Part shown: positions 31,804 through 56,255 of the stretch, in pieces | Layout: each line of letters begins with the position of its first letter | How positions within the stretch are numbered: position 1 is the first letter of the stretch | From: a bacterium | GTDB taxonomy: Bacteria; Sysuimicrobiota; Sysuimicrobiia; Sysuimicrobiales; Segetimicrobiaceae | Assembly (NCBI GenBank): GCA_035295165.1 | Contig: DATGJN010000093.1 | Coordinates: forward strand, 95 to 64,094 | Direction: 5' to 3' | Length of the DNA: 64,000 nt | Made by a program: the position numbers and the translations under genes | Notes under the pieces: model-generated | Told to the model about the DNA's origin: nothing | What the model saw: the letters and a program-made list of their open reading frames with translations, nothing else | The model's database searches: none

Positions 31804-32175
31804 TCAGCGCCGCCGCCCGCCGCGCTTCGCCTCCGTGTTTCGCTTGAGATCGAGCAGCCGCTCCTCGCTCTCCTTCATGAACCTGGTGAGCTTCTCTTCG
31901 AACGTCGCCTTCGACCGCGCGCGCGCCTGCCGCTCGGCGGGATCCAGCGCCTGCTTGACGGAGAGATCCAGCTTGCCCTTGTCGTTGTAGCCGAGCACCT
32001 TGACCTTGACGCGCTCCTGTTCCTTCAGGTAGTCGCGTACGTCTTTGACGTAGGTGTCGGCGATTTCGGAGATGTGGACGAGACCGCTCTTGCCGTCCTG
32101 GAGTTCTACGAACGCGCCGTAGTGGGTGATTTTGACGACCACGCCTTCAAGGACCGTTCCAGCCTCAAGGCTCAT
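31804..32175 (-). CDS. S1 RNA-binding domain protein (YabR/GSP13-like)
   Basis: Start at the ATG 32175. S1 fold motif GTVLEGVVVKITHYGAFVELQDGKSGLVHISEIAD with a basic C-terminal tail. Confidence 0.75.
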   Translation of the reverse strand: MSLEAGTVLEGVVVKITHYGAFVELQDGKSGLVHISEIADTYVKDVRDYLKEQERVKVKVLGYNDKGKLDLSVKQALDPAERQARARSKATFEEKLTRFMKESEERLLDLKRNTEAKRGGRRR

Positions 32176-32240
32176 ACCGGTGAAACCGAACCTCCCAGTG
32201 AGAGATGCAGAGCGTATTATAGCCCACCCCCCCAAAGGTG

Positions 32241-32272
32241 TCAACAAACTGCAACGAAACGTGCAACAAACG
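32241..32272. promoter_or_regulatory. three tandem CAAC/AAAC repeats with about 11-bp periodicity (CAACAAAC-tg-CAACGAAAC-gtg-CAACAAAC); candidate OmpR/GlnR-type operator upstream of amtB
   Basis: Read directly. AAC triplets recur every 10-12 bp. The 8-mer CAACAAAC also occurs upstream of the glnA promoter (51085-51092, minus strand). Confidence 0.3.
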
Positions 32273-32370
32273 TAAAGGCACGTCGCGCCGGAGATCAAAA
32301 GGGGGAGGCGCCGCCCCCCGGCGACCGCCGGATGAAGCGGGAGGGCGCCCCTTTCGCGGCCCGGCGGCCC

Positions 32371-32401
32371 TTGACACCACGCCTGCGGTGTGGTGTTCTA
32401 T
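32371..32401 (+). promoter_or_regulatory. candidate promoter of the amtB-glnK leader (-35 TTGACA; -10 region GTTCTAT)
   Basis: A perfect -35 hexamer at 32371-32376. The -10 is weak (TTCTAT/GTTCTA, spacer 18-19). Confidence 0.3.
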
Positions 32402-32450
32402 CAAACAAGCCGCGAGTCCGCGCCGACCGCGTGGCCTTGGGTGCCGTGAC

Positions 32451-32485
32451 GCCAGCCCAACGAACCGTTGGGGTGGCGTTTTTTT
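32451..32485 (+). terminator. intrinsic terminator/attenuator inside the amtB 5' leader: 12-bp stem (one G.G mismatch), AAC loop, then GTTTTTTTG
   Basis: 5' arm GCCAGCCCAACG (32451-32462), 3' arm CGTTGGGGTGGC (32466-32477), T7 tract 32479-32485. It lies about 95 nt upstream of the amtB ATG and downstream of the TTGACA element. Confidence 0.5.
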
Positions 32486-32580
32486 GTGCCCCGGGCGGCT
32501 TGAGGCCGGGACGCCTCCGATTGCGAGACCTGGACGCGCGTGGCGGCAGACCACCGCGCCTGTGACGAGGAGGAGGCACG

Positions 32581-33882
32581 ATGACAACGACACCGACGCT
32601 CAACGGGGCGGATCTTGCTTGGATGATGACCGCGACCGCACTGGTGCTCCTCATGACGCCCGCGCTCGGCTTCTTCTACGGGGGCATGACCGGCAACAAG
32701 AACGTCCTGAACACGATCCTGATGAGCTTCACCACGCTTGGGTTCTCCCTGGTCGCGTGGGCCCTGGTCGGGTACTCGCTCGCGTTCAGCCCCGGCAGCG
32801 CCCTGCTGGGCGACCTCCGCTGGATGCTGCTCAACCATGTCAACCTGGCGCCCGGCCAGTCGTTGAGCCCCACGATCGCCCCTGTCATCTACATGGCGTT
32901 CCAGGCGACGTTCGCGATCATCACGACGGCGCTCGTCTCGGGCGGCATCATCGGGCGGATGCGGTTTCAAGCGTACCTGGTGTTCATCACGCTGTGGATC
33001 GTGTGCGTGTACGCACCGATTGCCCACTGGGTGTGGGGCGGAGGCTGGCTCGGGAGTCTCGGCGCGCTCGACTTCGCGGGCGGGACCGTTGTGCACGTGA
33101 ACGCAGGAGTCGCCGCGCTTGTCGCCGCGCTCGTCGTGGGCAACCGCACGGACTACGGACGGCAGGCGTTCGTGCCGGGGAATGTCCCGTTCGTGCTGCT
33201 CGGCGCCGCACTGCTCTGGTTCGGGTGGTTCGGCTTCAACGGCGGCAGCGCCGTGGCGTCGAACGGGCTCGCCGCCCTGGCGTTCGTGAACACGTTCCTG
33301 GCCCCTGCGGGAACGATGGTGGTGTGGGCACTGCTCGACATGCGGCGTCTCGGGAAGGTGACCGCGATCGGGATCGCGAGCGCGATCGTCGTCGGACTGG
33401 TCGTGATCACGCCCGCGTCCGGCTTTGTGCCGCCGATCTGGGCCCTCGTCATGGGCGGGCTCGGCGCCGTCCCAAGCTACTATGCGATGCAGTGGCGGGC
33501 CAAGACTCCGGTCGACGAGTCCCTGGACGTCTTCGCCGGGCACGCGGTCGGAGGGGCGACCGGCGCGATCCTGACCGGCGTATTCGCGGTCAAGGCGTGG
33601 AACACCGTGCAGAACGGGTTGATCGCCGGCAATCCGCAGCAGATCCTCATCCAGGCGCTGGCGGTTGCCGGGGCGGCGGCCTACAGTGCGCTCGGTACGT
33701 TCGTACTCCTCAAGGTGATCGGCGCCGTGATGCCGCTGCGCGCCGCCCGTCAAGATCAGGCGCTGGGGATGGATCCCACCCAGCACGGCGAGGAAGCGTA
33801 CACGGGCGGCGAGGGTACCGTGTTGGTGCTGCCGGAGATCTCGCCGCAACCGAAGCTGGAATCAGCGAGGGCGAAGGCATGA
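32581..33882 (+). CDS. amtB: ammonium transporter AmtB
   Basis: 433 aa, about 11 TM helices, with Amt signature blocks (DFAGGTVVH, GFNGGS). It overlaps the glnK ATG (ATGA). Confidence 0.9.
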   Translation: MTTTPTLNGADLAWMMTATALVLLMTPALGFFYGGMTGNKNVLNTILMSFTTLGFSLVAWALVGYSLAFSPGSALLGDLRWMLLNHVNLAPGQSLSPTIAPVIYMAFQATFAIITTALVSGGIIGRMRFQAYLVFITLWIVCVYAPIAHWVWGGGWLGSLGALDFAGGTVVHVNAGVAALVAALVVGNRTDYGRQAFVPGNVPFVLLGAALLWFGWFGFNGGSAVASNGLAALAFVNTFLAPAGTMVVWALLDMRRLGKVTAIGIASAIVVGLVVITPASGFVPPIWALVMGGLGAVPSYYAMQWRAKTPVDESLDVFAGHAVGGATGAILTGVFAVKAWNTVQNGLIAGNPQQILIQALAVAGAAAYSALGTFVLLKVIGAVMPLRAARQDQALGMDPTQHGEEAYTGGEGTVLVLPEISPQPKLESARAKA

Positions 33883-34229
33883 AGATCATCGTGGCGATCG
33901 TGCGTCCCGAGAGGGCCAACGACGTCTTGGAGGCGCTGTACAGGGCCGAGGTGCGCGGACTGTCGCTTAGCCGCGTGCAAGGGCACGGCGGCGAGCTTGA
34001 GCGCATGGAGACGTATCGCGGGATGACCGTCAAGGTTGAGCTCACCGAGAAAGTGCGCTTCGAGATCGGCGTGTCGGACCACTTCGTCGAGCCGACCGTG
34101 CGGGCGATCATGCTCGCGGCGCGCACCGGCGAGGTCGGCGACGGGAAGATCTTCGTGCTGCCGGTGGACAAGGTGTACCGAATTCGGACCGGCGAAGAGG
34201 ACACGGCGGCGGTGACCCCGGTCGGCTGA
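33879..34229 (+). CDS. glnK: nitrogen regulatory protein P-II (GlnK/GlnB)
   Basis: 116 aa, MKIIVAIVRPERANDVLEAL... It has a T-loop region with RYRG-like RGMTVKVE and the C-terminal GDGKIFV motif. This is the classic amtB-glnK operon. Confidence 0.9.
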   Translation: MKIIVAIVRPERANDVLEALYRAEVRGLSLSRVQGHGGELERMETYRGMTVKVELTEKVRFEIGVSDHFVEPTVRAIMLAARTGEVGDGKIFVLPVDKVYRIRTGEEDTAAVTPVG

Positions 34230-42870: not shown

Positions 42871-43134
42871 GCTGAATCCTCCGTAGCTATTGTACGGGAG
42901 GGTCGGAAAACGCGTCAACATGAGGCCTGCGGCCGGTGCCCCGTGCGGTGCGCCGCCTGCGGATCCACGCTGGCCCGTGTCTCAGCGTCTTTGGGGCGAA
43001 GGGACGAGCCCGTGGAGGCCGGGTTCGCACGGAGGGGCGAACGATGCAGAACAGGGCGCGTTGGCAGGACGGTCTCGGAACGTTGTGTCAGGTCGGCGGA
43101 TCTGGTTCACATCACGCGTTCGGGAGAGTGGATG

Positions 43135-43683
43135 TCACGCTGAGCCGGTGTGAGCCGGCTCGAACGCGAGAAACACGTGCTCTCCTTGTTCTCCAATCTT
43201 GACGAATCCCGCATTCTCGAACGCGGCGATCGCGCGGTGGTTACGAGCGACCGGGTCCACGGTGATCTGGCGCCATCCGGCTGCACGCAGATGCACTGAG
43301 AGGGCGCGCACGGCATCGACGCCGAACCCGCGCCCCTGCGCCTCGGGCACGAGCACGATGTCCACTCCTCCGTCAGGCGGTTGGTCCGACCACGCTTGAA
43401 TGTACCCGATTGGCATGCCCACCGCTTCGACGATGAAGGCCTGTCGTGCCGGGTCGCGCCTCAGGTATCGTTCGGCAACCTCTTCTCGGTTCTTCGGCGT
43501 GCCGCCCCACCACACAACGAACGCTGGATCGCCGAACCAACGCGCCAGAGTATCGAGGTCCGCGTCTGACGCTGGTCGCAGCGTCGTCGTCCTTCCGGCG
43601 ATCAGCACGGCGCCGTGCGCATTCCCTTGTCCCGTGTCCTCGCGTGGCGTCACGGCTGCGGAGTTAGCCAACGGTGGTCGCAT
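43135..43683 (-). CDS. GNAT family N-acetyltransferase
   Basis: 182 aa. Acetyl-CoA binding region QGRGFGVDAVRAL. Confidence 0.65.
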   Translation of the reverse strand: MRPPLANSAAVTPREDTGQGNAHGAVLIAGRTTTLRPASDADLDTLARWFGDPAFVVWWGGTPKNREEVAERYLRRDPARQAFIVEAVGMPIGYIQAWSDQPPDGGVDIVLVPEAQGRGFGVDAVRALSVHLRAAGWRQITVDPVARNHRAIAAFENAGFVKIGEQGEHVFLAFEPAHTGSA

Positions 43684-43743
43684 GTCCAGCGGAGGCGCCG
43701 CGCGGGGATTCGGCGTCGAATCGTTGGCGTCGGTGGATCCTGC

Positions 43744-44178
43744 TCAGAGGTGCGTCACCGAGAGGATGCCGTGCCATTTCTCGTTGAGGTATTCGCACAC
43801 CAGCCGCCGATGACAATGTTCGGGTGTCGCCTCGGAGCAAAGGAGGCACGCACCCTCTAACATCTCGGGACGGATCTGGTCTTCGACTCTGCGTGCTCTC
43901 ATCAGGGCGAAGAATCGGGCTCGGTATGCGCTCCAGTCGCCTTTTTGTTGTTTGTAGGTCTTCATGATCTCGTCCGTGGGAGCGAGCAGCGGCTCATGGG
44001 TGTAGCGAACGTTGCCAATCTTTCTGAGGAAATACTCGAGATCCCCGGCCTTGGCAAAGCCGGCGAGCTGTGACGTGTTATGGAGGCGCACGTCCATGAC
44101 TTTCTGGACACCGGCGTTGAGCAAGCGCTCGAAGAAGTGCTCGGCTGTAGTCCTCGTGAACCCGATGGTGCATACCAT
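43744..44178 (-). CDS. DUF488 family protein
   Basis: Start at the internal ATG 44178 (MVCTIGFT...). The pattern is typical of DUF488. Confidence 0.65.
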   Translation of the reverse strand: MVCTIGFTRTTAEHFFERLLNAGVQKVMDVRLHNTSQLAGFAKAGDLEYFLRKIGNVRYTHEPLLAPTDEIMKTYKQQKGDWSAYRARFFALMRARRVEDQIRPEMLEGACLLCSEATPEHCHRRLVCEYLNEKWHGILSVTHL

Positions 44179-44376
44179 GGTGCGCCGTTGAGGTGTCATT
44201 TCCCTAGGGACACGCTATCCGGCGATCCCATGCGTGAGCACCAGGGTGAGCCAGAGCGCGCTGCCGAGCAATGTCAACGCCGTCGTGACCGCACGAGGCC
44301 GACGTAGACTACGGCGAGACGCCTCCGCCAACATGGTGACATCGGGCCGCTCCGGCGGGGGTCCCTCGCGCCTTCG

Positions 44377-49457: not shown

Positions 49458-50900
49458 CTACACGTCGTAGTAGAGGAAGAACTCGTACGGAACCGGTCGG
49501 ATGTCCACCTCATAGAGCTCTTTCGTGCGCTTGTAGTCGACCCAGGTGTCCAGCAGGTCCCGCGTAAAGACGTCTCCCTCCATCAGAAACTCGTGGTCTG
49601 ACTCGAGCGCCGCGAGCGCGGCGCCGAGGGAACCCGGCACGCTCTTGATCTTGGCCGCGTCCTCGGGCGAGAGGTGGTACGTGTTCGTGTCCAGCGGACC
49701 GAACCCCGCCTTCGTCGGGTCGATCTTCCGCTTGATCCCGTCCAACCCGGCCATCAGCATCGCGGCGAACGCGAGATACGGGTTGCACGTCGCGTCTGGA
49801 CACCGGAACTCGAGACGCTTGCTCGCCGCGGCCGCGGGCCCGGCGAAGTACATCGGGATGCGCACCGCCGCGCTCCGGTTGCGCTTGCTGAACGCGACGT
49901 TCACCGGGGCTTCGTAATGCGGCACGAGCCGGCGGTACGAGTTGGTCGTGCACGCGCACAGCGCGAGGAGCGCGTCGACGTGCGTCAACAGTCCGCCGAC
50001 GTAGTAGAGGGCGTCCTGGCTCAACTCCGCGTAGCCGCCCTCACTGTAGAATAGGTTCGCGCCGCCTTTCCAGAGGCTCTGGTGTGTGTGCATCCCGGTA
50101 CCGTTGTCGCCAAACAACGGCTTCGGCATGAACGTCGCCGTCATGCCGTGGCGTCGCGCGATGTTCTTCACGATGTACTTGTAGCTCAGCAGGCTGTCGG
50201 CCATCCTGGTGAGCGTGTTGTACTTCATGTCGATCTCGCACTGCCCCGCCGAGGCGACCTCGTGGTGCTGCATCTCCACCTCGATGCCCCACGCTTCCAT
50301 CTGGAGCGACATCTCACTGCGCAGGTCCAGCAGCGTGTCGGCCGGCGGAACAGGGAAGTAGCCCTCCTTGGTGCGGATCCGGTTGCCCATTCCGGGCTGC
50401 CCGGTGTTCCAGACGGCCTCGGGGGAGTCGATGCTGTAGCCCATCCGGTGCGGAAGCACTTCGTACTGCACGTTGCTGAAGACGAAGAACTCCGCCTCCG
50501 GCCCCCAGTAGCTCACGTCCGCGACTCCCGACTGCTTGAGGTAGTCCTCCGCCTTCTGCGCGACGTACCGGGGATCGCGGGAATATGGCTTGCCCGTGGT
50601 GGGATCGTTGACGTTGCAGACGATCGACAGCGTCGGGATCTCCGTAAACGGGTCGGGATGAGCCGTCGCCGGATCGGGCATGAGGAGCATGTCGCTCTCT
50701 TCGATCGCCTGGAAGCCGCGGATGCTGCTCCCGTCGAACCCGATGCCGCGCTTGAACGTTTTGTCGTCGATCTGGCTCGCCGGAATCGTCGCGTGCTGCC
50801 ACGTGCCGGGCACGTCCACGAACTTGAGATCCACCATCTTGATGCCGCGGTCCTTGATATACGCGACGACATCCTGTGCGGTCATCTCCTTGCCAGGCAT
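49458..50900 (-). CDS. glnA: glutamine synthetase type I (GlnA)
   Basis: 480 aa, close to actinobacterial GlnA1 blocks (DGSSIRGFQ, KPLFGDNGSGMH, NRSAAVRIP, and the adenylylation-region tail). RBS GGAGGTGGAG. Confidence 0.92.
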   Translation of the reverse strand: MPGKEMTAQDVVAYIKDRGIKMVDLKFVDVPGTWQHATIPASQIDDKTFKRGIGFDGSSIRGFQAIEESDMLLMPDPATAHPDPFTEIPTLSIVCNVNDPTTGKPYSRDPRYVAQKAEDYLKQSGVADVSYWGPEAEFFVFSNVQYEVLPHRMGYSIDSPEAVWNTGQPGMGNRIRTKEGYFPVPPADTLLDLRSEMSLQMEAWGIEVEMQHHEVASAGQCEIDMKYNTLTRMADSLLSYKYIVKNIARRHGMTATFMPKPLFGDNGTGMHTHQSLWKGGANLFYSEGGYAELSQDALYYVGGLLTHVDALLALCACTTNSYRRLVPHYEAPVNVAFSKRNRSAAVRIPMYFAGPAAAASKRLEFRCPDATCNPYLAFAAMLMAGLDGIKRKIDPTKAGFGPLDTNTYHLSPEDAAKIKSVPGSLGAALAALESDHEFLMEGDVFTRDLLDTWVDYKRTKELYEVDIRPVPYEFFLYYDV

Positions 50901-50950: not shown

Positions 50951-50988
50951 CAAACAAAAACGCCCTCCGAGCCGATGCTCGGAAGGCG
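50951..50988 (-). terminator. intrinsic terminator/attenuator in the glnA 5' UTR: 11-bp stem (one mismatch), hexaloop, then UUUUUGUUU
   Basis: Minus strand: CGCCUUCCGAG-caucgg-CUCGGAGGGCG then UUUUUGUUU (plus coordinates 50961-50988 stem, 50951-50960 A-run). It lies between the predicted glnA promoter (about 51024-51052) and the glnA RBS (about 50910). Confidence 0.55.
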
Positions 50989-51023
50989 TCCAGGCCCCCG
51001 GTACCTCTGAGTACCTAGTGAGT

Positions 51024-51052
51024 TTTATACCACGTCAGGCGGATGAAGTCAA
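51024..51052 (-). promoter_or_regulatory. near-consensus sigma-70-type promoter TTGACT-17 bp-TATAAA driving the glnA leader
   Basis: Minus-strand -35 at 51047-51052 and -10 at 51024-51029, read directly. The predicted TSS is about 20 nt upstream of the terminator hairpin. Confidence 0.5.
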
Positions 51053-52795: not shown

Positions 52796-54586
52796 TCAGC
52801 GGTGCTTTCGCCGGGCACCCGACGCCGCCGGGCGCGAGCCGGCAGGCCGACGGGCCGGGTGCTTGGCGCGGGCCTTGGGCCCGGCCCGCTTCGCGGCCGC
52901 GCGCGCGGGCTTCGGGGCCTTCTTTGCTCCTGGCTTCGCCCTGGTTCGGGGCTTCGACGTCTTTGCGGCCGCGCGCCGGGGCGCGGCCGGGGCGGCCTCC
53001 ACGCCGCCGACCGGGACGAGCTCGAACATGGTGGTCGGCGCCGGCACCCCGGCACCCTTGACGGCGCCCGGAAGGATGCGAAACACGGGGCACAAGAACA
53101 CCTCGATCCTCCCCCCCCCGGGGGCGAACAGCGCGGGGAGGTGCAGTGTCCGGAGCCCCACGATCGTCAGCGGTCCGCTCGGCGGCGTGGTAAGCCATCT
53201 ACGCACGGTGTCATAGGCCGGCGTGCTGGGGGCCGCGACGGCAGTGATGCGCGTCCGGCCGGCAGCGTCCCCGAACGCGAAGAGAAACGGCCGGCCGTCC
53301 ACGAATTGGCTCCGTCCGCCATAGAACTGGCCGGTCATATAGACGTACGCGGTTTCGGTGACCGGGGCGTGCCTGAACGTCATCGTGCCGCCGGTAAACG
53401 CCACGCGGGTCGATGGCTGGAAATCTGGGAATGGCATCGGGTGGACGCTCTCGACCTGTGTCCACTCCGCTCCACCGGGGGCATCGACGGGGATCGGCGG
53501 AAACGTGAGCCCCCGTTCCGTCGTGACGCTCCGCACAGGATGGATCTCCAGCAGTCGGGGTACGGCGGGGTGCGTGCCCGAGGCGTGGTCAGGCAGCAGG
53601 CGCAGCAGCCCCGTCACGGTGACCCGCTGCTGCGTGGCGATCACCTCGTCCAGGAGTTGCGCGTACTGGCTGTGGGCGGTTCCTCCGGCGTCGAGCGCGC
53701 CCGGCCGGATTGTGTTTTGGATCACGCACGCGATGATGCCGCCGTCGGACTCCCCGGTAGAGGGCGCCAGGCCGAACGCCACACCGAGCCCGTACTCGCC
53801 TTCGGGGCCGCGGGCGGTGACGTGTCCCTCCACGCTCACGTCAACCCCCGGTGTGAAGCGAAGGTAGGCGAGGGGTTCGGCTCCCGACACGACGAGATCC
53901 GGTTGGTCCGTCGATCCCGGCATCATCCGGACGGCGCTGAGCACGCGCAGGAGATCCGCCGGCGTCCTCACGTCGATCCGTCCGGCGGGGCGGGCCGGCG
54001 TGTGCTGCCGCATCTCGTCCGAGACGAGGATCGCGCGGGCGATTTCGCGCATCGGCGTGCGCGAATTCCGGCTCTGCCGTTGGATCCGCAGGAACGCCTC
54101 CTGCTCGTCGATGCCCTCGCGCTGCATCAAGATGCCCTTCGCTCGGTCCACCAGCTTGCGGGTCTCGAGGGTCTCCTTGAGATTGCCCACTTCCTGCTGG
54201 AGCGCGCGCAGCTCAGCGAAGCGCGCCATCGCGACTTCGATCACGGGAACCAGCTCGGCCTCGCGCACCGGCTTCACGAGGTAGGCGAGCACGCCGGCCT
54301 CCTGGGCGCGCTGCACGAGGTCGCGCTCGCTCCACGCCGTGAGGAGGATGATCGGCCGCGGCTGGCGCGTCATGATCGTGGACGCCGCCGAGATGCCGTC
54401 GAGGCCAGGCATCTTGATGTCCATGAAGATCAGATCGGGGGCGAGTTTGCCGGCGAGCGTCACCGCCTCCTCGCCGTCCCCGGCTTCCCCGACCACCTTG
54501 TAATCGTGTTCCTCGAGCATCGTCCGCAGGCCCATACGGATGACCGGCTCGTCGTCGGCGATCAGGATGCGCATCGCGTCGATCAT
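52796..54586 (-). CDS. response regulator with REC + ANTAR RNA-binding domains (PdtaR/AmiR/NasR-type) fused to a ~390-aa uncharacterised C-terminal region and a Lys/Ala/Pro-rich basic tail
   Basis: REC domain (ILIADDEPVIRMGL...MPGLDG with a phospho-acceptor D). ANTAR helices (KLVDRAKGILMQREGIDEQEAFLRIQRQSRNSRTPMREIARAIL). The rest is protein-like but unrecognised. The last 60 aa are an AKP-rich histone-H1-like tail. Confidence 0.8.
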   Translation of the reverse strand: MIDAMRILIADDEPVIRMGLRTMLEEHDYKVVGEAGDGEEAVTLAGKLAPDLIFMDIKMPGLDGISAASTIMTRQPRPIILLTAWSERDLVQRAQEAGVLAYLVKPVREAELVPVIEVAMARFAELRALQQEVGNLKETLETRKLVDRAKGILMQREGIDEQEAFLRIQRQSRNSRTPMREIARAILVSDEMRQHTPARPAGRIDVRTPADLLRVLSAVRMMPGSTDQPDLVVSGAEPLAYLRFTPGVDVSVEGHVTARGPEGEYGLGVAFGLAPSTGESDGGIIACVIQNTIRPGALDAGGTAHSQYAQLLDEVIATQQRVTVTGLLRLLPDHASGTHPAVPRLLEIHPVRSVTTERGLTFPPIPVDAPGGAEWTQVESVHPMPFPDFQPSTRVAFTGGTMTFRHAPVTETAYVYMTGQFYGGRSQFVDGRPFLFAFGDAAGRTRITAVAAPSTPAYDTVRRWLTTPPSGPLTIVGLRTLHLPALFAPGGGRIEVFLCPVFRILPGAVKGAGVPAPTTMFELVPVGGVEAAPAAPRRAAAKTSKPRTRAKPGAKKAPKPARAAAKRAGPKARAKHPARRPAGSRPAASGARRKHR

Positions 54587-54587
54587 G

Positions 54588-56255
54588 CTACACTCCCGCC
54601 GGCCGTGGCATCGTGATCACCGCGCGCGTGCCGCCCGCGTTCGTGAAGTCGATCCGGCCCTTGAGGTCATCCCGAACGAGCGTGTGCACAATCTCGAGCC
54701 CCAGGTCGCCGGACCGATCGGGGGAGAACCCCGGCGGCAGTCCGATCCCGTCGTCCTGGACCTCGACCCGCAGCGTGTCGCGTCCGGCCGCGAGCGTGAT
54801 GAGCACCGTGCCGTTGGTCCGCCCGTTGAACGCATGCTCCATCGCATTCTGCAGCAGTTCGTTGACGACGAGCGCGAGCGAGGTCGCCTGCCGGCTGGGC
54901 AGACTGACGTCGTCGCCGGTGACCTTGACGGCGAGCGCGAACCCGGGCGGGGCCATCGTCTGTGAGACGGTCTGAGCCACGTGCTCGAGCATCTCGCGGG
55001 CGACGACCTGGCGTACGCCCTCCGCGGCGAGAATCTCGTGCACCGCGGCGATGCTGAGGATCCGGTTGATCGTCTCCGTCAGCACCTCGCGGCCGGAGAC
55101 CTCCCGGCCGTCGCGCAGTTGCAGGCGGAGGAGCATCGCGATCATCTGCAGGTTGTTCTTGACGCGGTGGTGCATCTCGCGGACCATCGCCGACTTCACG
55201 ACCAGACTGGCGTTCTCGATCGCAAGCGCGGTCTGGTTGGCGAGGGTCTGCAGCATGTTGATCTCCGACTGGGTGAACTGGTGCCGCCGCGCCGTGTAGC
55301 AGTTGATCACGCCGAGCGTGCGGTCTCGTACCCGAAGCGGCACCGAGAGCAGTGACCGCACGTGGGGCGGCTCGACCAGCTCGTGCGCGAGGAAGCGGGG
55401 GTCGCTGGCGAGGTCCAGGCTCGCCGCCGGCTGGCCGCTGGCCGCGGCCTCTCCGGGAATACCCTCCCCGGCGCGAAGGGTGCGGCGGGGGCGGCTCCCC
55501 GATGGTTCGGGGTGGGCCGCGGCGAGCACGAGCTCATCGCCGTCGAGCAGCATCAACGTGCACATCGGCGCGTCGAATACCCGCGCGGCCATCTCCACCA
55601 CCAGCCGGAGGATCTGCTCGAGGTAGAGCGGCGAGGTCAGCGTCTCGCTGACCTCGGCGAGCGTACGGAGCTCCATGATCTGGCGCCGCATGCTGTCGTA
55701 CAGGCGCGCCTTCTCGAGGGTGCCGCTGGCGAGGTCGGCGATAATGCTGAGCAGCTCGACCTCGTCCTCGCCCCACTCGTGCGCGCCGGTCGTTTGGACG
55801 TTGATCGCGCCGAGCACTTTGCCGGCCACGGTCAGCGGCACGGCGAGCAGCGACTGGAACAGCACCTCGTGCGTCTCCGGGAGGAGCTTGAAGCGCGGAT
55901 CCGCCGCCGCGTCGGTGGAGGCGACGGGTTGCCCCGTGTCGGCCGCCCAGCCGGTCAGGCCCTCGCCCAGCCGAAGGCGGGCGCGGCCGATCGCGTCCGC
56001 AGCGAGGCCGGTCGTGGCGTTGAGGACGAGGTACTCGCGTGAGGCGTCCAGGAGGTAGATCGAGCAGCTGTCCACCCGCATGACCTCCGCGGTCGTGCGG
56101 GTGATCAGGGTGAGCGTGGTGTCGAGGTCCAGCGCGGCGCTGATCGCCCGGCTGATGGCGCGGAGCGCGGAGATTTCCGCCGTCTTCCGGGCGAGCTGTT
56201 GGGTCGGACCGTGTTCTCGGGTACGCTCGTGCGTCATCGCCCCTCCGTGCGACAC
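54588..56255 (-). CDS. sensor histidine kinase with two GAF domains and a HisKA_2/HATPase core (PdtaS-like)
   Basis: Two GAF blocks. H-box MVREMHHRVKNNLQMIAMLL is typical of HisKA_2. C-terminal ATPase G-boxes. It sits immediately upstream of, and on the same strand as, the ANTAR regulator. Confidence 0.8.
   Translation of the reverse strand: MSHGGAMTHERTREHGPTQQLARKTAEISALRAISRAISAALDLDTTLTLITRTTAEVMRVDSCSIYLLDASREYLVLNATTGLAADAIGRARLRLGEGLTGWAADTGQPVASTDAAADPRFKLLPETHEVLFQSLLAVPLTVAGKVLGAINVQTTGAHEWGEDEVELLSIIADLASGTLEKARLYDSMRRQIMELRTLAEVSETLTSPLYLEQILRLVVEMAARVFDAPMCTLMLLDGDELVLAAAHPEPSGSRPRRTLRAGEGIPGEAAASGQPAASLDLASDPRFLAHELVEPPHVRSLLSVPLRVRDRTLGVINCYTARRHQFTQSEINMLQTLANQTALAIENASLVVKSAMVREMHHRVKNNLQMIAMLLRLQLRDGREVSGREVLTETINRILSIAAVHEILAAEGVRQVVAREMLEHVAQTVSQTMAPPGFALAVKVTGDDVSLPSRQATSLALVVNELLQNAMEHAFNGRTNGTVLITLAAGRDTLRVEVQDDGIGLPPGFSPDRSGDLGLEIVHTLVRDDLKGRIDFTNAGGTRAVITMPRPAGV

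Follow-up and report, generated by a model that had tools for sequence, protein, structure and literature searches.

The amtB-glnK operon, located on a 64,000-nucleotide stretch of contig DATGJN010000093.1 from a bacterium of the Sysuimicrobiota (hereafter the window; 68% GC), raises the question of how these two genes of ammonium uptake are expressed when an intrinsic terminator stands between a promoter-like element and the start codon of amtB. No gene on the plus strand needs a terminator at this place because the upstream neighbour of amtB, a gene for an S1-domain protein, is divergent. Comparison with related loci indicated that the amtB-glnK leader is probably an ANTAR-type transcription attenuator, at which antitermination would occur under nitrogen limitation.

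Elements described in the initial annotation, i.e., a -35 hexamer TTGACA, a hairpin that has an AAC loop and a single G.G mismatch, a run of T, a ribosome-binding site (RBS) and the amtB ATG, were all present in the sequence, except that the hairpin begins at 32450 rather than 32451. Its 5' arm (CGCCAGCCCAACG, 32450-62) and 3' arm (CGUUGGGGUGGCG, 32466-78) flank the loop (32463-65) and pair over 13 positions that include the mismatch (G55.G73), leaving 12 base pairs; seven T (32479-85), followed by G, come directly after the stem. The computed fold of the hairpin has a free energy of -22.5 kcal/mol, and the fold of the 84-nt leader a z-score of -3.76, with none of 200 shuffled sequences folding as well. 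The sequence therefore has the features by which intrinsic terminators are recognized (a GC-rich stem-loop and a U-tract, downstream of a promoter). In loci of AmtB homologues fetched from genomes and metagenomes (designated by L-numbers), a terminator hairpin with U-tract was found at the equivalent position of the syntenic loci L001 and L166, and in the alignment of these with the window 89.5% of cells were paired, with one double and three single compensating changes. This conservation in relatives bore out the view that amtB has a long leader containing a genuine intrinsic terminator. A simple terminator scanner failed to call it for one reason only: owing to the mismatch inside the stem, the perfectly paired part lies more than 2 nt away from the T run.

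Folding of the RNA made before the terminator is complete placed two hexaloop hairpins, P1 and P2, in the preceding sequence (Table 1). Nascent RNA that ends at the terminator loop (32406-32465) has a minimum-free-energy (MFE) fold of -20.1 kcal/mol consisting of these two hairpins, each of which has G at position 4 of its loop (G32422 in P1 and G32448 in P2). The core of P2, GCCGUGACGCC, occupies 32443-53, and its inner stem is short, with only 2 bp ahead of a U.C mismatch, for which an outer helix of 6 bp compensates. Nucleotides 32450-60 are common to P2 and the 5' arm of the terminator, so that the two folds are mutually exclusive, and the same overlap was noted in at least 10 related modules. 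In the complete leader, conformers with P1 and P2 reached -5.6 to -9.4 kcal/mol as opposed to -22.5 to -23.8 kcal/mol for the terminator. Because the terminator is far more stable, termination would be the default and a factor would be needed to hold P2 closed. P1 as listed in Table 1 was nearly invariant in L001 and L166 (96% of cells paired; loops CAUGCC and CUCGCC). Two other versions, one folding as CGCG-AGUC-CGCG (32411-22) and the other the MFE pentaloop hairpin CCGCGC[CGACC]GCGUGG, were rejected, neither being kept in these two loci.

ANTAR proteins bind RNA and act as antiterminators. Two short hexaloop hairpins, the second of which overlaps an intrinsic terminator, define the ANTAR sites listed by Ramesh et al. 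(2012, PMC3369931) upstream of genes for PII, ammonium transporters and glutamine synthetase. The amtB leader has two tandem hexaloop stem-loops, the inner stem of P2 falling short of the usual 3 bp or more as described above, together with G at loop position 4, overlap of the P2 3' arm with the terminator 5' arm and a REC-ANTAR protein encoded in the same genome. The linker is also short, the inner stems being 15 nt apart (32427 to 32443) and the extended helices 1 nt apart (32435 to 32437); linkers of 5-12 nt occur in eut, and 2-25 nt were accepted by Mehta et al. (2021, PMC8164766).

Table 1. Features of the amtB-glnK locus, the glnA leader and the genes of the candidate regulatory pair, in coordinates of the window.
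Feature	Position	Strand	Description or basis
-35 hexamer of putative amtB-glnK promoter	32371-32376	+	TTGACA; read in sequence
Candidate -10 region	32394-32404	+	TGTTCT with 17-nt spacing, or TATCAA with 22-nt spacing
P1	32409-32435	+	Interrupted stem GCCGCG.GUC[CGCGCC]GAC..CGUGGC; nascent-leader MFE; hexaloop CGCGCC 32419-24
P2 (antiterminator)	32437-32460	+	UUGGGUGC[CGUGAC]GC(CA)GCCCAA; nascent-leader MFE; hexaloop CGUGAC 32445-50
Predicted intrinsic terminator 1	32450-32485	+	12-bp stem with one G.G mismatch, AAC loop, U7
P2' hairpin (module 2)	32502-32517	+	GAGGC[CGGGAC]GCCUC; same hairpin type
P2' 3' arm and candidate anti-Shine-Dalgarno	32513-32518	+	GCCUCC; complementary to GGAGGC, 32572-77
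Shine-Dalgarno region	32568-77	+	GAGGAGGAGG; read in sequence; amtB ATG at 32581
amtB, ammonium transporter	32581-33882	+	Pfam PF00909 Ammonium_transp, 1.9e-105
glnK (PII)	33879-34229	+	Pfam P-II 9.9e-24; NCBIfam P-II 1.4e-26
glnA	49458-50900	-	Pfam
glnA leader, sister element	50953-51052	-	Promoter TTGACT-17-TATAAA, P1, P2, terminator
Candidate trans-acting regulator, 596 amino acids	52796-54586	-	REC (7-116) and ANTAR (135-187), Pfam (1.7e-21)
Candidate cognate histidine kinase	54588-56255	-	GAF-GAF-HisKA_2-HATPase (Pfam); abuts regulator gene
S1-domain protein gene	31804-32175	-	Divergent upstream neighbour of amtB
Promoter of S1-domain gene	32244..32216	-	Perfect sigma-70 consensus, TTGACA-17-TATAAT
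Terminator-like hairpin between the two divergent promoters	32303-32319	-	GGGGGGCGGCGCCTCCC, then CCTTTT
Stretch between NAD synthase gene and mfd	42922-44376		About 1.4 kb; minus-strand open reading frames 43135-43683 and 43744-44199

The arrangement of hairpin and terminator recurs ahead of amtB in close relatives of the window locus. In loci with 77-91% AmtB identity (L001, L166, L167, L168-170, L081 and L082), and also in L005 from a metagenome-assembled genome labelled Armatimonadota, a sigma-70-like promoter is followed by the same module. The relatives' version reads GGC[CNNGAC]GCC, with a 3' arm that runs into a terminator of the form CGCC...GGCG-U4-7, and a GC[CNNGAC]GCC core overlapping the terminator was found in the amtB leaders of L167 and L168 (twice in each), L081, L082 and L005. 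At the place of P1, L082 has CAGUC[CGCGAC]GACUG. The relatives that carry the module are probably Ca. Sysuimicrobiota. Two or three modules in series were noted in the amtB leaders of L167 (2303-2503), L168 (820-1042) and L082 (1207-1509), an arrangement like that of the multi-terminator eut operon, and this stacking suggests a steeper, multi-checkpoint response.

The composite was also found ahead of glnA, in agreement with the initial annotation that the leaders of the two operons are organized alike. P1 of the glnA leader is GGUAC[UCAGAG]GUACC, P2 is GGGGGC[CUGGAC]GCCUUC, and the terminator, CGCCUUCCGAGC-AUCG-GCUCGGAGGGCG-U5, begins inside the 3' arm of P2. P1, P2 and an overlapping terminator were present in all three of the glnA leaders of L161, L163 and L165, and the linker between P1 and P2 in glnA leaders is 0-3 nt. 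The amtB leader of L166 and the regulator and glnA genes of L161 lie on one contig. That the terminator hairpins of the amtB and glnA leaders are dissimilar, as originally stated, is true of the middles of the stems only, since the base of the stem with its U-tract (CGCC...GGCG-U5-7) and the preceding GCC-NN-GAC-GCC are common to both. Across 19 aligned P2-type hairpins from amtB and glnA leaders (element GC[CNNGAY]GCC), loop position 4 was G in every one, position 1 was C in 18 and position 5 was A in 18; the three closing pairs were nearly invariant, and the fourth was A-U in 6, G-C in 4 and G-U in 2. Two of the 19 copies, the window amtB P2 being one, are degenerate in that the third pair is mismatched.

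The likeness of the two leaders was also evident from results of searches with a covariance model (R1) built from ten modules of relatives, with no sequence from the window, and run with filters off. Exactly two significant matches were obtained in the window, one in the amtB leader (32439-86; 32.0 bits, E = 7.3e-6) and one in the glnA leader (51.9 bits, E = 1.2e-10), the next being the reverse strand of the glnA terminator at 15.6 bits. The core alone, GCCNNGANGC (GC[CNNGAC]GCC), occurred 573 times in the 2.15 Mb of sequence compared, and only in the amtB and glnA leaders named above was the core combined with a compact overlapping terminator; other composite matches, few in number, had long, weak 'stems' and lay inside coding regions. 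An extra match to the 11-mer form of the element in the window, at 43646 on the minus strand, was set aside as due to chance; it lies at the start of an open reading frame for a GNAT-like protein and has no terminator.

R1 was also run on 975 kb of other loci, most of which were amtB regions from Acidobacteriota, Gemmatimonadota and others, and upstream of amtB in about 150 loci from other phyla it found nothing except in L148. This locus, the best match outside the training set, comes from a low-GC organism and has a canonical ANTAR hairpin, GGC[AAUGAU]GCC, with terminator upstream of amtB. P2 of the L165 glnA leader, GGC[CAUGAU]GCC, differs from it at loop position 1 only. The match to L148 ties the variant described here to the classical ANTAR motif. 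The long amtB leader of this unrelated organism holds several ANTAR-type modules with A1/G4 loops (1000-1420), among them GGGC[AUUGAU]GUCC. The motif was not found in the amtB leaders of L171-L174, which together with the approximately 150 loci from other phyla were of use only for negative control. A gltB-like gene stands immediately ahead of amtB in L002, L083 and L172. L173 (75% AmtB identity) has a terminator-like hairpin in its amtB leader (1370-1410), GGCCCGCUCC...GGAGCGGGCC-UUUCUU, with no GCCNNGAC element, and may use a different mode of leader control.

The -35 hexamer of the amtB promoter is perfect, as had been annotated, and invariant at the equivalent place in L001, L166, L167, L168, L081, L082 and L005, whereas the -10 box in the window is poor. 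In relatives other than the closest trio (the window, L001 and L166), TTGACA is followed by TGG-TATAAN/TATGAN at a spacing of 16-18 nt. A TAT-type -10 lies 22-23 nt from TTGACA in the trio as opposed to 16-18 nt in the other relatives and in glnA promoters, and the trio looks to have acquired an insertion of about 5 nt after the conserved TGG. The spacer of the window promoter (32377-32404) can also form a hairpin, CACCACGCC-UGC-GGUGUGGUG. The amtB promoter may be weak or activator-dependent. No promoter was called at amtB by the promoter scanner, which demands T at position 6 of the -10 and consequently misses promoters with TATAAA or TATGAG; promoter calls were therefore read from the sequences. 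An upstream amtB promoter is plausible on this basis, with a putative placement of the transcription start site.

These observations bear on whether the terminator is a switch at all. It could be a constitutive attenuator that lowers amtB expression, or the end of a small RNA, with the amtB promoter located downstream of 32485. The poor -10 of the upstream promoter would suit this explanation, as would the short terminated leader transcript of about 75-80 nt that would be made in any case and a weak resemblance in Rfam to a small RNA with terminator (Spot 42, with 16.9 bits against a gathering score of 80, which is at noise level). However, the sequence from 32486 to 32567 is GC-rich and contains no A/T-rich -10-like hexamer, and no relative has a TTGACA-N16-18-TATNNN promoter other than the one upstream of its terminator or terminators. 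A plain terminator also leaves unexplained both the overlap with P2 and its recurrence in glnA and amtB leaders, and the stacking of two modules in relatives suits regulated attenuation rather than the end of a small RNA. An unregulated terminator is consequently regarded as quite improbable.

Control of the terminator by a metabolite such as glutamine or another nitrogen metabolite, acting on a riboswitch with no protein involved, would also account for a structured leader, and the folding z-score given above is in keeping with it. Glutamine riboswitches occur upstream of nitrogen genes in cyanobacteria. The search of Rfam that the initial annotation had recommended found nothing in the leader, and the whole window had no match at gathering thresholds, while an E-value scan of 32150-32650 returned only noise (HepC_CRE, Spot_42 and frameshift sites). 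Such a result is expected if Rfam has no model for a short two-hairpin motif. The approximately 45 nt before the terminator form two simple hairpins rather than a multi-helix junction, and what is conserved is a hairpin of 11 nt, identical in type to the sites of ANTAR proteins, with flanks that are not conserved between amtB and glnA leaders. A riboswitch is accordingly held to be very improbable. Attenuation through a leader peptide was rejected, no start codon with a Shine-Dalgarno (SD) sequence being present in the same 45 nt.

A candidate for the protein that would hold P2 closed is encoded just upstream of glnA, about 20 kb from the amtB leader, where genes for a histidine kinase and a REC-ANTAR regulator form a two-gene operon. 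The order of genes for H+-PPase, kinase, regulator, 0-4 other proteins, glnA and NAD synthase is kept in L161, L163 and L165. The N-terminal 190 amino acids of the regulator matched Rv1626/PdtaR (2.7e-56) and EutV (1.4e-39) among PDB structures. Members of the regulator family are conserved proteins of 575-625 amino acids, one of which is from Candidatus Segetimicrobium genomatis (Ca. Sysuimicrobiota/CSP1-3). The first GAF domain of the kinase (amino acids 27-192) matched the GAF domains of PtsP/EI-Ntr (5.7e-32) and NifA (7.9e-26). The GAF domains of these proteins bind glutamine and 2-oxoglutarate. By homology, one of these indicators of nitrogen status is a plausible input to the kinase. A related reference is PMC4848567.

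In the structure of EutV with RNA, a single hexaloop is the minimal site, and G4 of the loop flips out onto Tyr164, where it is read by Arg142, Lys149 and Glu160; G4 is the sole base-specific contact, A1 is not contacted, and Met172 serves as a hydrophobic plug that is essential for RNA binding (PMC8934654). The invariant G4 and free position 1 of the RNA match what the EutV structure says is recognized. On the protein side, alignment of the regulator to EutV showed that R143, K144, K150 and E161 are kept, with F165 in place of Tyr164, and these residues, together with R173, were invariant in 30 members of the family. The change from Met to Arg at the plug may go with the conserved C1, A5 and C6 of the loop, although this is speculation.

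Antitermination could instead be the work of another protein, i.e., an ANTAR protein encoded elsewhere, the S1-domain protein or a PII-dependent factor. No more than 64 kb of the genome is in view, the S1 gene, whose product would bind RNA, keeps its synteny with amtB in L001 and L166 as in the window, and the regulator departs from EutV at the Met 'plug' position. Arguing for the regulator itself, the kinase-regulator pair is tightly linked in each of the four genomes examined to glnA, whose leader has the motif in its best copy, and ANTAR recognition is marked by a hexaloop with invariant G4 (PMC8934654). In L167, L168, L081 and L082, where the modules are the same, amtB does not adjoin the S1 gene. 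An origin of antitermination in one of these other proteins is considered clearly unlikely.

Between the terminator and the start codon, for which the initial annotation had given only a length of about 95 nt, a second conserved hexaloop hairpin, P2', was found. The distance from the end of the U-tract is 82 nt to the RBS and 95 nt to the amtB ATG. The stem of P2' is invariant in L001 (loop CGGGAU) and L166 (loop CGCGAU), and its counterpart in L005 is GGGGC[CGGGAC]GCCUC. In L167, L168 and L082, the counterpart overlaps a second terminator, CGCCUCC...GGAGGCG-UUUU, and no second U-tract follows P2' in the window, L001 or L166. The 3' arm of P2' extends into the candidate anti-SD sequence, and 32513-18 paired with 32572-77 whether the full leader or 32486-32600 was folded, in MFE and centroid structures alike. 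It is possible, judging from these sequences, that a second terminator has turned into a helix that sequesters the SD. A translational second tier, in which the SD is freed when protein holds P2', is a tentative suggestion that may well prove wrong.

With the ANTAR-type attenuator as the preferred reading, the following sequence of events is proposed. Transcription would start a few bases after the promoter (32371-32404) and, by default, stop at the terminator (32450-85). As long as the 3' arm of the terminator has yet to be transcribed, P1 and P2 can form in the nascent RNA. When nitrogen is scarce, the GAF-GAF kinase would phosphorylate the REC-ANTAR regulator, and a dimer of the activated regulator would bind the hexaloops through the flipped-out G4 and keep P2 closed. 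The terminator being blocked in this way, RNA polymerase would read through into amtB-glnK. The same regulator would act likewise on the glnA leader, leading to co-regulation of the two operons. At the second tier, unbound P2' would free GCCUCC to pair with the SD sequence GGAGGC, and bound P2' would leave the RBS free. The earlier proposal that conditional termination gates both operons appears well founded in view of the overlap between the terminator 5' arm and a conserved ANTAR-type hexaloop hairpin, the same module in the glnA leader and the kinase and REC-ANTAR pair beside glnA.

Several observations weigh against this scheme or parts of it. Loop position 1, A in ANTAR sites, is C in both P1 and P2, and it is mainly for this reason that the element is called a variant rather than a plain ANTAR member. 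P1 is not always a hexaloop, being a pentaloop in L167 and a 12-nt loop in L005, and P2 of the window is degenerate, with U.C at the third stem pair and an ambiguous register that allows either GC[CGUGAC]GC or GGUG[CCGUGA]CGCC, the latter at 32440-53. Arg173 of the regulator (codon 54068-54070, minus strand) replaces the essential Met172 'plug' of EutV. Hairpins with CNNGAC hexaloops are common in sequence of 68% GC (60 in the window), and the 11-mer GCCNNGAYGCC was not enriched overall (11 observed, 6.6 expected). Covariation within P2 across the 19 hairpins was modest and confined to the fourth pair; 17 of 500 shuffles reached the observed count of double changes. The pairs of P1, P2' and anti-SD/SD are nearly invariant in the three leaders that can be aligned, and this conservation may be of sequence rather than structure; anti-SD/SD, which does not vary in the trio, shows no covariation. 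Pairing to the SD was predicted in the window and L001, not in L166, and z-scores of these folds were not significant. The source organism, moreover, is known from metagenomes only. Since single hairpins and the 11-mer are unspecific, only the composite with the overlapping terminator is specific, and the main support for the attenuator is the recurrence of this composite architecture around terminators otherwise unrelated in sequence, to which covariation adds little. The invariant pairs of P1, P2' and anti-SD/SD fit the proposed structures without proving them.

The regulator is much longer than its REC and ANTAR domains. Its C-terminal 407 amino acids (52796-54019, minus strand) include a conserved extension without Pfam match, modelled as about 320 amino acids of tandem OB folds followed by a tail rich in Arg and Lys that is predicted to be disordered. 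The extension is rare, with 19 representatives among 1.84 billion, some of which are stand-alone proteins of about 300 amino acids. An AlphaFold2 model (predicted local distance difference test score, 77) resembled the tandem OB-fold nucleic-acid binders Teb1, RPA and SSB as well as the anticodon-binding domains of Asp-, Asn- and Lys-tRNA synthetases. This usable model came from an alignment that included distant stand-alone homologues; the shallow alignment of the full regulator gave an unusable C-terminal model. A fuller proposal is that these proteins and sites form a distinct ANTAR subclass, in which a REC-ANTAR-OB-basic tail regulator would read the C1-N-N-G4-A5-C6 loop via Arg173, the OB folds would grip the single-stranded leader, and control would be exerted at two levels (antitermination at 32450-85 and SD release from 32513-18), the second having evolved from the second terminator of relatives. 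Taken as a whole, this proposal is doubtful and is put forward as a rather unlikely case.

Other features of the window were noted in passing. The start codon of glnK overlaps the stop codon of amtB (ATGA). The S1 gene and amtB stay paired in L001 and L166, and the minus-strand hairpin between the two divergent promoters, which might stop antisense transcription leaving the amtB region, shows no obvious conservation in either locus. Of the open reading frames in the stretch between the NAD synthase gene and mfd, one resembles a GNAT acetyltransferase, and the stretch looks like a recent insertion, the flanking genes being adjacent in L161 and L163.

If the attenuator reading is correct, glnA and amtB-glnK of a widespread uncultivated soil phylum would be co-activated after the start of transcription by one kinase-regulator pair, which would replace the DNA-binding NtrC, GlnR, TnrA and NtcA of well-studied bacteria and extend the connection of ANTAR proteins with nitrogen to a new lineage. 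The loops, with G4 kept and A1 changed to C, would amount to a natural test of which part of the ANTAR RNA code is essential. The ANTAR-OB fusion is a rare regulator architecture in which the extra domain has no described function, and the composite model (hexaloop hairpin and overlapping CGCC...GGCG-U terminator) is specific enough for annotation of the regulon in metagenomes. The structural features of ANTAR sites are all present save A at loop position 1, and the kind of mechanism is already known; in general form and as applied to amtB, PII and glutamine synthetase genes it dates from 2010-2012, which makes the advance incremental. ANTAR control of leaders in nitrogen assimilation has been documented by experiment for Geobacter nifH and by prediction from sequence for amtB, glnK/PII and glutamine synthetase genes. 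New elements are the lineage, the C1/G4/A5/C6 loop, the Arg 'plug', the possible conversion of a terminator to an SD helix and the C-terminal extension. No mention of ANTAR, amtB or glnA was found in the CSP1-3/Sysuimicrobiota genome papers checked.

Among known systems, glutamine riboswitches (glnA RNA and Downstream-peptide motifs) are likewise cis-acting RNAs upstream of nitrogen-assimilation genes. They bind glutamine directly, have another architecture and, by comparison with Rfam, match the present leaders in neither sequence nor structure. On the protein side, Rv1626 of the PdtaS/PdtaR pair (Rv3220c/Rv1626; PMC8164766) is the closest solved relative of the REC-ANTAR part, and PdtaS is also a HisKA_2 kinase with N-terminal GAF domain, the sensor region being GAF-PAS in PdtaS as opposed to GAF-GAF here. 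PdtaR, however, is a REC-ANTAR protein of about 205 amino acids, whereas the present regulator has 596 with its OB-fold extension. Mycobacterial ANTAR sites mostly sequester the RBS and repress translation, with few terminator overlaps, and their targets are lipid and redox genes; the sites described here are predicted to act as a terminator switch, with proposed activation of translation, on amtB and glnA. In actinobacteria, A1 and G4 are each conserved in about 50% or more of sites, and many sites act on translation via the RBS (Mehta et al., 2021, PMC8164766).

A closer likeness was noted to EutV/eut of Enterococcus faecalis, NasR/nasF and AmiR/ami (PMC3369931, PMC8934654), which share with the window leaders two hexaloop stem-loops, G4 and the overlap of P2 with the terminator, an ANTAR regulator and kinase encoded nearby and targets in nitrogen metabolism. 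In contrast with these systems, the loops here have C1 rather than A1 and conserved A-C/U at positions 5 and 6, P1 is less regular, and the regulator differs from EutV by Arg in place of Met172 and by about 400 additional C-terminal residues that comprise the modelled OB folds and basic tail.

The likeness extends to GnfK/GnfR of Geobacter sulfurreducens (Ueki and Lovley, 2010, PMC2995071), also a kinase and REC-ANTAR pair, with terminator-like hairpins in leaders of nitrogen genes. Antitermination by this pair was demonstrated for nifH, and similar terminators were placed in the glnK and amtB leaders by sequence-based prediction; the nifH leader RNA to which GnfR binds contains CAGGCAAGGGCGCC (consensus CAGGCAANGGCGCC) (PMC2995071). 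This consensus can be read as GGC[AANGGC]GCC, which would give the same GGC/GCC stem, G4 hexaloop and terminator overlap as the GGC[CNNGAC]GCC element described here, with loops that differ at positions 1 and 5, so that the present loop is not of Gnf type. The Geobacter targets have RpoN-type -24/-12 promoters and are subject to a GnfL/GnfM cascade, whereas the promoters of the window and its relatives are sigma-70-like (TTGACA and TATNNN). GnfK lacks a sensor domain and GnfR an OB-fold extension, as opposed to the two GAF domains of the present kinase and the predicted OB folds of the regulator.

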